Shown here: in pieces, positions 17,860 to 19,624 of the stretch
How the letters are laid out: each line of letters starts with the position of its first letter
How positions within the stretch are numbered: position 1 is the first letter of the stretch
Assembly: GCF_006345805.1 (NCBI RefSeq)
Contig: NC_043001.1
Span: forward strand, 124,310,001 to 124,374,000
From: Octopus sinensis
Lineage: Eukaryota
Direction of reading: 5' to 3'
Length of the DNA: 64,000 nt
Made by a program: the position numbers and the translations under genes
The notes under the pieces: model-generated
What the model was told of the DNA's origin: nothing
Database searches by the model: none
What the model saw: the letters and a program-made list of their open reading frames with translations, nothing else

Positions 17860-18168
17860 AAATATATATATATATATATATAATTTCAACAATTGAGGGT
17901 AAAATTAATTAGTTATTAATCAATTTCACCAAGTATTCAGTATGTAAAAGGACCATTTAAGGCGAATTCAAAATATTACATTATATAAAAGGGCTTAGTA
18001 AAATAAATTACTTTGCCACATACTGAACTCATTAGAAATAGCAGCCAAAAAAGTTTTTTTACCTATTTCTAATACTTAAAGAAAATTTCTCTCAGATAGT
18101 GTTAACTCAGAATAACCCACGAAGGTATGGGGGTAAAAAACATTAAAAAATCACAAGTGCAAAGATTA

Positions 18169-18231
18169 TTTGAGAACGTTACGTTTCTAGATCAGCCAAA
18201 TAAAATTCGACATTTCTTTCGTCAGCCCAAA
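18169..18231 (-). ncRNA. Type I hammerhead ribozyme
   Basis: TTTGGG-CTGACGA-stem II-GAAA-CG(TAA)CG-TT|CTCAAA on the minus strand. Confidence 0.75.
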
Positions 18232-18732
18232 ATTTCTTAATTTGGATTTGGAAACACTGAAAGTAGGAACATACCCTTTTGGCGACTTAACACCTCAGAT
18301 GACCCGTTCAAACTGACAGTGCCAACAAATTCAAAATATGCAAGCGAAGAATTCCTGCTCTCCCCTTCCACCCACGTGGGCTAAACTAGCAAACACCATA
18401 TTTTAGCGGTGAAAACCGAGGCAATAAACAGAGAGAAATGAATTATAATTTCAACAATTGAGGGTAAAATTAATTAGTTATTAATCAATTTCACCAAGTA
18501 TTCAGTATGTAAAAGGACCATTTAAGGCGAATTCAAAATATTACATTATATAAAAGGGCTTAGTAAAATAAATTACTTTGCCACATACTGAACTCATTAG
18601 AATAGCAGCCAAAAAAGTTTTTTTACCTATTTCTAATACTTAAAGAAAATTTCTCTCGGATAGTGTTAACTCAGAATAACCCACGAAGGTATGGGGGTAA
18701 AAAACATTAAAAAATCACAAGTGCAAAGATTA

Positions 18733-18793
18733 TTTGAGAACGTTACGTTTCTAGATCAGCCAAATAAAATTCGACATTTCTTTCGTCAGCCCA
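18733..18793 (-). ncRNA. Type I hammerhead ribozyme (stem I shortened at the inversion junction)
   Basis: Second tandem copy of the 18169-18231 motif. Confidence 0.65.
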
Positions 18794-19336
18794 GATGACC
18801 CGTTTGGCTGATCTAGAAACGTAACGTTCTCAAATAATCTTTGCACTTGTGATTTTTTAATGTTTTTTACCCCCATACCTTCGTGGGTTATTCTGAGTTA
18901 ACACTATCTGAGAGAAATTTTCTTTAAGTATTAGAAATAGGTAAAAAAACTTTTTTGGCTGCTATTTCTAATGAGTTCAGTATGTGGCAAAGTAATTTAT
19001 TTTACTAAGCCCTTTTATATAATGTAATATTTTGAATTCGCCTTAAATGGTCCTTTTACATACTGAATACTTGGTGAAATTGATTAATAACTAATTAATT
19101 TTACCCTCAATTGTTGAAATTATAATTCATTTCTCTCTGTTTATTGCCTCGGTTTTCACCGCTAAAATATGGTGTTTGCTAGTTTAGCCCACGTGGGTGG
19201 AAGGGGAGAGCAGGAATTCTTCGCTTGCATATTTTGAATTTGTTGGCACTGTCAGTTTGAACGGGTCATCTGAGGTGTTAAGTCGCCAAAAGGGTATGTT
19301 CCTACTTTCAGTGTTTCCAAATCCAAATTAAGAAAT

Positions 19337-19399
19337 TTTGGGCTGACGAAAGAAATGTCGAATTTTATTTGGCTGATCTAGAAACGTAACGTTCTCAAA
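19337..19399 (+). ncRNA. Type I hammerhead ribozyme
   Basis: CTGACGA at 19343-19349 and GAAA at 19381-19384. Predicted cleavage after T19393 (GUU). Stem I is TTTGGG/CTCAAA. Confidence 0.75.
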
Positions 19400-19591
19400 T
19401 AATCTTTGCACTTGTGATTTTTTAATGTTTTTTACCCCCATATCTTCGTGGGTTATTCTGAGTTAACACTATCTGAGAGAAATTTTCTTTAAGTATTAGA
19501 AATAGCTAAAAAAACTTTTTTGGCTGCTATTTCTAATGAGTTCAGTATGTGGCAAAGTAATTTATTTTACTAAGCCCTTTTATATAATGTA

Positions 19592-19624
<33 letters not shown>

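Follow-up and report, generated by a model that had tools for sequence, protein, structure and literature searches.

How Penelope-like elements (PLEs) build their tandem and inverted insertions, and what role hammerhead ribozymes and circular RNAs have in it, is debated. The contrast lies between the sole PLE system studied in vitro, which did not need its ribozyme, and work on retrozymes, which proposes circles, as far as the available parts of these sources describe. For the anole PLE, the accessible text of PMC11167929 reports a bias towards AT-rich DNA and extension of both target strands in vitro, two start sites within the RNA that set the tail with no need for target homology, and hammerhead cleavage that was dispensable, unprocessed RNA being the main substrate in vitro. 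Genomic PLE insertions are described as having a microsatellite bias alongside a partial tandem, an inverted copy and a tail (PMC8557442, PMC3846280). The link between animal retrozymes and a Penelope enzyme has so far consisted, in the sections of the two accounts available to us, of co-occurrence and sequence trees (PMC7229834, bioRxiv 10.64898/2026.07.22.740005). A short, young and abundant non-coding family with a tail, an inversion and a preference for (TA)n leaves a footprint of the mechanism behind that link, and comparing the lengths of the arms across many copies could tell a linear from a circular template.

We describe here a 565-bp element of Octopus sinensis, found in a window of 64 kb, by which we mean the whole stretch of DNA analysed. 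It is a further case of a known kind of system rather than a new system, and a young one with a few testable twists; its ends record the route by which it was copied.

Layout of the insertion

The element consists of two arms placed head-to-head between (TA)n runs, as follows.

17862-17878, no strand: left (AT)n target run, just after the end of a SINE-like repeat
17879-18793, minus strand: left arm, 915 bp or 1.62 units, with its hammerhead on the minus strand; composed of a pLTR-like end with tail (351 bp), a non-coding body (214 bp) and a pLTR-like end (350 bp)
17879-17969, minus strand: tail of 91 bp, present in the left outer end and missing from the right outer end
18794-18802, no strand: central junction, a 9-bp templated piece with 2-nt microhomologies on either side
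18803-19598, plus strand: right arm, 796 bp or 1.41 units, without tail, with its hammerhead on the plus strand
19599-19624, no strand: right (TA)n target run

The unit has a period of 565 bp, or 564 where a 1-bp gap at about 18603 is crossed, and only four differences separate its copies within the locus (18658, the gap at about 18603, 19443 and 19506). The sequence-only reading of this DNA, which had counted about 1.6 tandem units followed by about 1.4 inverted and nearly identical ones, with (TA)n on both sides, was thus accurate in each of these respects, and its proposal that the insertion is young is supported as well. It had also called the array palindromic, which is right for the inverted head-to-head arms but not for their symmetry, since the centre is a loop of 38 nt and the outer ends are staggered by 91 nt.

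The 9-bp piece at the centre is a copy of 18298-18306, which lies 67 nt further along the unit. On the side of the left arm, the junction starts 54 nt past the second predicted hammerhead site, while the start of the right arm lies 26 nt ahead of the second predicted site in that arm, inside helix II of a hammerhead of which the 3' half is present (18828). The outer ends lie 296 nt (left) and 205 nt (right) downstream of the hammerhead site, so that neither end coincides with a cleavage site. About 4 nt of the left outer end overlap the target, the right outer end has no target homology, and the 3' ends of both arms face outward into (TA)n. No target-site duplication is readable in (TA)n, no empty site was found, and no sequencing contig bridged the right (TA)n run.

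Upstream of each arm end lies the next non-coding unit instead of an ORF. The absence of a long ORF, also claimed from the sequence, was confirmed: no stop-to-stop frame of at least 100 aa overlaps 17879-19598, the longest frame in the circularised 565-bp unit has 47 aa, and neither of the two unit frames scanned (2 of 2) has a Pfam match. The reverse transcriptase (RT) and GIY-YIG endonuclease ORF of an autonomous PLE is absent from the element by frame listing and Pfam, and no PLE domain was found by Pfam in 148 of the window's 196 non-repetitive frames of at least 62 aa. Elsewhere in the 64-kb window, no second copy of the unit was found. An intron starting from GTATGT at 19295 was considered and set aside, no contig joint in four sequencing runs supporting splicing.

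The SINE-like repeat adjoining the insertion on its left spans 17576-17860 and has four partial copies in the window (7552-7698, 16483-16633, 24495-24646 and 60019-60171), the copies being about 90% alike. A repeat with an internal 97-bp duplication occupies 17091-17480; its ends are presumably Helitron-like. The repeats that flank the insertion resemble those of octopus.

Hammerhead motif, RNA fold and unit family

The hammerhead motif occurs in the element as listed here, together with the monomer that would run from site to site.

18161-18238, minus strand: complete type I hammerhead, predicted cleavage site after GUU at 18175
18733-18793, minus strand: hammerhead with helix I cut by the junction, predicted site 18739
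18828 (predicted site), plus strand: 3' half of a hammerhead only
19330-19407, plus strand: complete type I hammerhead with its core in two parts, 19343-19349 and 19381-19384; helix III is palindromic and cleavage is predicted at 19393
18829-19393, plus strand: site-to-site monomer of 565 nt, predicted rod-like fold with branch hairpins

Two minus-strand hammerheads had been proposed earlier, and they are indeed found with predicted sites 564 nt apart (18175 and 18739); the complete plus-strand copy with its site at 19393 had been overlooked, and the hammerhead at 18739 has a helix I that the junction has shortened to 4 of its 6 core-proximal pairs. The core of the motif is complete; helix I measures 6 bp and is extended distally, helix III has 3 bp, and the predicted site follows GUU. 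With the core consensus taken from the available text of PMC3088659, all positions are present (C3 U4 G5 A6 N7 G8 A9, G12 A13 A14 A15.1, U16.1 and H17, here U), and the pairs 1.1-2.1 (C-G) and 15.1-16.1 (A-U) are both kept. Pair 10.1-11.1 is broken, with A·A closing helix II in all three hammerhead copies; among sequencing contigs, two of run X1 have U at 11.1 (a loose end at 19357) and other loose ends keep A. A mispair at 10.1-11.1 is described as a rejection criterion for Perreault et al., with U·U noted as tolerated (PMC3088659), and an axolotl hammerhead is reported to retain cleavage in spite of a U·U mispair where its helix II begins (PMC7229834); the available portion of PMC6155905 yielded nothing on helix II variants. 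Judged by its sequence, the motif is a hammerhead variant of non-canonical type I.

A type I descriptor, written after the motif had been seen and tolerating a mismatch at 10.1-11.1, matches the unit and none of 5000 dinucleotide shuffles of it. We relied on these shuffles because a separate pattern-based chance test was circular, its pattern having been derived from the sequence; the hammerhead motif is above chance. The Rfam hammerhead family had no match in the window, whether at the gathering score or at E<=10. Matches by Rfam E-value to miRNA and sRNA models were rejected, as they lay below their gathering scores; the best ones fell on the central hairpin.

Helix III is a near-palindrome, predicted at +1.3 kcal/mol as a hairpin and at -6.6 kcal/mol as a duplex, and this combination of a weak hairpin and a stable duplex is the dimer signature of PLE and retrozyme hammerheads. 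Cleavage at GUU sites is slower than at GUC or GUA. PLE and retrozyme hammerheads are described as having a dimer design and weak cleavage in vitro (PMC4209133, PMC6765202, in the parts available), and one of nine Xenopus retrozyme dimers is reported as cleaved in vitro (bioRxiv 10.64898/2026.07.22.740005). We infer that the hammerhead is a weak, dimer-type motif with putative activity.

The site-to-site monomer is predicted to be unusually stable, both as a linear molecule (z = -5.4; 0 of 100 shuffles as stable) and as a circle, for which the sense (hammerhead) strand has z = -4.9 versus -2.1 for the antisense strand (60 shuffles each). Long-range predicted helices join segments from both sides of the 214-bp body. 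A transcript across the centre of the insertion is predicted to form a long hairpin that buries the central hammerhead. Because of this burial, and because so few of the Xenopus dimers were cleaved, this palindromic copy, suggested earlier as a possible origin of a roughly 564-nt monomer or circRNA, probably supplies monomers poorly; its output is made doubtful also by the off-consensus pair 10.1-11.1 and by the shortened helix I in one of the minus-strand hammerheads. The copy may have no effect beyond that of a long hairpin, if it is read through at all.

The descriptor found two further motifs in the window outside the element, against 0.03 expected (60 block shuffles).

61028-61623: older head-to-head insertion of about 590 bp, arms 93-95% alike, tail of about 78 nt, between (TA)n runs
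61483 (site), plus strand: canonical type I hammerhead with G10.1-C11.1 and palindromic helix III, within the insertion at 61028-61623
44112-44415, minus strand: solo hammerhead piece of about 300 bp, predicted site 44347, between AT-rich repeats

Neither locus has sequence similarity to the 565-bp unit. The insertion at 61028-61623 has the layout of the element, tail included, and the layout thus recurs in the genome. The piece at 44112-44415 ends in (TA)n 235 nt downstream of its site; its motif has a long helix I and, as in helix II of the unit, an A·A closure, a 3-bp helix and a 3x3 loop. Since the A·A closure and the 3x3 loop are shared with this locus, the helix II variant is no private lesion of the element.

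Two other genes or gene remnants of the window were noted.

45264-45860, minus strand: C-terminal 199 aa of a non-LTR retrotransposon protein, with a weak zf-RVT match, between (TTA)n runs
37099-37169, plus strand: one tRNA gene, scoring 60.4 bits in Rfam, its anticodon read by eye as GCC

The retrotransposon fragment, which we take to be Dong/R4-like, has by eye a zinc knuckle and a restriction-like endonuclease. It has 414 relatives at E<=1e-30; the named ones, from sea cucumber, anemone and corals, are 56-65% identical, and unnamed ones are closer; the DNA of the window thus has the look of an animal's.

The unit family was followed in 4 of 24 sequencing runs (X1, X2, X10 and X12, all contigs), which were compared with 19034-20300, that is, one unit with the right flank; X10 and X12 are RNA runs by guess only. 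One unit was matched by 2898 and 1984 contigs in the two DNA runs, which carry different organism labels, so that the family is abundant in both, and a contig identical to the hammerhead core had a depth of 2651 where most covered flank bins had 7-31, contig depth being no measure of copy number and read by us as "abundant" only. These observations suggest a high copy number of the family. Depth along the unit is very uneven, and loose ends represent diverged subfamilies. Loose ends in (TA)n occur at 19124 (the left-type end) in X12 and at 19117 in X10. In X10 and X12, contigs extend over the unit and across 19393, a pattern equally compatible with uncleaved RNA, with ligated circles and with DNA. 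One contig each in X10 and X12, and none in either DNA run, has a joint from 19357 to 19460 that skips 102 nt, among them the hammerhead's 3' half; it may be a diverged subfamily or a deletion. In metagenome contigs, a loose hammerhead pattern gave 120 loci, none of which (0 of 120) is similar to the unit, and the exact 33-nt pattern occurred in no viral contig.

Predicted pairs are broken by 6 of 36 variants versus 12.7 expected (permutation, P = 0.005), the variants being unphased and non-independent and the fold being predicted from the window's own copy. They are taken from 40 of the 78 substitution rows, with 19160, the second allele at 19265, 19443 and 19506 left out. With moderate strength, this points to selection on the predicted RNA structure of the family. 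G19341>A, in 84% and 83% of depth, turns a G·U of helix I into A-U, and loss of 1 nt at 19388, in 51% and 57% of depth, makes helix III a perfect palindrome with a predicted duplex of -9.8 kcal/mol; no change in the core was seen among these 40 substitution rows or among 12 of the 29 indel rows. The copies at the locus agree with one another at 14 of 14 positions at which a different allele makes up 48-100% of family depth in at least one DNA run, and both arms thus stem from one template lineage.

Template and insertion mechanism

The element is very probably a non-autonomous Penelope-type retrozyme (non-LTR retrozyme), and we consider it probable, with less assurance, that this identity and a priming on two strands hold jointly. 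The earlier suggestion of a retrozyme-like, Penelope-type non-coding unit with a type I hammerhead is supported by the descriptor, by the missing ORF and by the layout of the insertion. The RT-endonuclease of an autonomous PLE, acting in trans, would have made the insertion recently. A partial-tandem source copy would first have been transcribed on the hammerhead strand. Both strands of the (TA)n target would then have been nicked and both 3' ends extended by the enzyme, as the ends of the element suggest, with cDNA synthesis beginning inside the RNA at two sites separated by 91 nt, which lie 296 and 205 nt downstream of the hammerhead site. Each cDNA is longer than one unit and would have been copied through two hammerhead sites, synthesis stopping 54 and 26 nt past the second. 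The junction records the remaining step: the left cDNA would have jumped 67 nt at a 2-nt microhomology and copied 9 nt, after which a second 2-nt microhomology would have joined the two cDNAs into the head-to-head palindrome.

Because the arms are longer than one unit, the template must have been either an uncleaved multimer or a circle. Between these two, an uncleaved linear transcript is the most likely by a slight preference, since both arms stop past the second hammerhead and within 30 nt of each other; the two arm ends are what slightly favours it. A transcript that began near the upstream hammerhead of a partial-tandem source would directly account for these stops.

Alternatively, and as the sequence-only reading had suggested, one could envision a hammerhead-cleaved monomer that was ligated into a circle, which both primers would have travelled round until they paused at the hammerhead, the element and the enzyme being the same. 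A circle would explain why each arm is longer than one unit and shows no scar where it passes the cleavage site, and the units all have the same alleles. The site-to-site monomer is also predicted to be stable in circular form, helix I closing over the site; circular retrozyme RNAs are described from coral, mussel and axolotl, with a rolling-circle model proposed, and the axolotl motif cleaves in spite of its U·U at the base of helix II (PMC7229834, available sections). However, nothing about a circle would make both arms run beyond the first hammerhead yet stop at the second, within 30 nt of one another, and pausing would be needed at the second pass only; moreover, the hammerhead is non-canonical, and the anole enzyme in vitro is reported to use mainly unprocessed RNA (PMC11167929). 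We therefore hold the circular template to be possible but less likely than the linear one. A stronger version, in which the family is a circular-RNA retrozyme that still moves today, has a hammerhead variant not described before, and inserts by simultaneous priming of both target strands on a circular template, is in our view rather unlikely. The variant in question would be defined by an A on either side where helix II begins, followed by 3 bp and a 3x3 loop, a combination found in two unrelated families. If this version were true, retrozymes would demonstrably use Penelope machinery, and tails of 80-90 nt would mark the elements of this lineage.

Two-strand priming has its own competitor, in which one strand was primed and the second arm came from fold-back self-priming of the cDNA or of an antisense template, with the end joined to the target by repair. 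In the accessible part of PMC3846280, Arkhipova et al. read palindromic head-to-head PLE junctions in this manner, with an antisense template, and the near-identity of the arms would agree with it. The centre, however, is no simple hairpin but an asymmetric loop of 38 nt that contains the templated 9 bp. The right arm has a clean end in (TA)n, which falls short of the left one by 91 nt, and the second insertion of the window (61028-61623) is staggered likewise; these features make a single priming event improbable.

It is less probable still that the unit is no retrozyme mobilised independently but the pLTR region of an autonomous PLE, or else the product of an old deletion which recombination between DNA copies has spread as a satellite. 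Uneven contig depth and diverged subfamilies would suit such an origin, parts of the unit may be common to larger elements, and retrozymes have been reported as sister to pLTRs (bioRxiv 10.64898/2026.07.22.740005, in its available part); but in each arm the sequence closes on itself at 565 bp and has no remnant of a coding region, the long-range helices are predicted to span both sides of the body, and the ends resemble those of retrotransposition rather than recombination. Finally, an assembly or library fold-back artefact is very unlikely, for although the arms are near-identical, such structures are described as troubling short-read assemblies (PMC8557442, in part) and the central junction at 18794-18802 is not among the contig joints of the four runs, the left and right flanks differ, four private differences separate the arms, a templated piece sits at the centre, the two outer ends are unlike in the manner of PLE ends, the left-type end with (TA)n recurs in a contig of X12 and the right flank is covered in both DNA runs, and contigs of so abundant a family are short and drop rare forms (254 further loose ends lay outside the joints compared).

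Comparison with known systems

We found no literature on the unit family or on inverted, tailed retrozyme insertions within our search, most subscription papers and supplements lying outside it; a study of 336 recently active Penelope-like insertions has, in the main text available, no mention of ribozyme, hammerhead or retrozyme (PMC13282606).

The closest described relatives are the metazoan non-LTR retrozymes (PMC7229834; bioRxiv 10.64898/2026.07.22.740005), which, as the accessible text presents them, are like the unit non-coding, AT-rich and tandem, carry a single type I hammerhead in each unit, and have a monomer predicted to be highly paired, a high copy number and a short palindromic helix III. 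At 565 bp, the unit is longer than the 150-450 bp given in PMC7229834 and falls within the 51-972 bp given in bioRxiv 10.64898/2026.07.22.740005. Of the features that define a non-LTR retrozyme, a hammerhead in two consecutive units is found in the left arm (18175 and 18739), and at the level of sequence the unit is non-coding, its monomer is self-paired and its family is multi-copy. In contrast to the plain tandem described for metazoan non-LTR retrozymes, the present insertion is head-to-head with a tail, and its hammerhead differs from those described in that A·A closes helix II and the predicted site is GUU; the unit is known from sequence alone.

In its layout, the insertion resembles those of endonuclease-bearing PLEs as described in the available parts of PMC3846280, PMC8557442 and PMC11167929, with the same partial tandem, pLTR-like ends with a hammerhead in the pLTR, 5'-truncated copy in inverted orientation, tail on one of the outer ends, microhomology where the arms are joined and (TA)n target. 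Unlike these insertions, it has a body of 214 bp instead of an ORF and an inverted part of more than one unit, and its tail measures 91 nt as compared with the 30-40 nt described. The hammerhead itself is nearest to the minimal and dimeric PLE hammerheads, which are likewise of type I with a palindromic helix III, a long helix II and an extra nucleotide after A9, and which are expected to have low activity and to work as dimers; it differs from them in lacking the G10.1-C11.1 pair, in a further A before G12 and in a helix I of 6 bp plus a distal helix versus 4-5 bp (PMC4209133, as far as available). Seen beside these systems, the element appears to work like a PLE insertion while having the sequence-level features of a non-LTR retrozyme, and it is, on this reading, neither an autonomous PLE nor the bearer of a canonical hammerhead.
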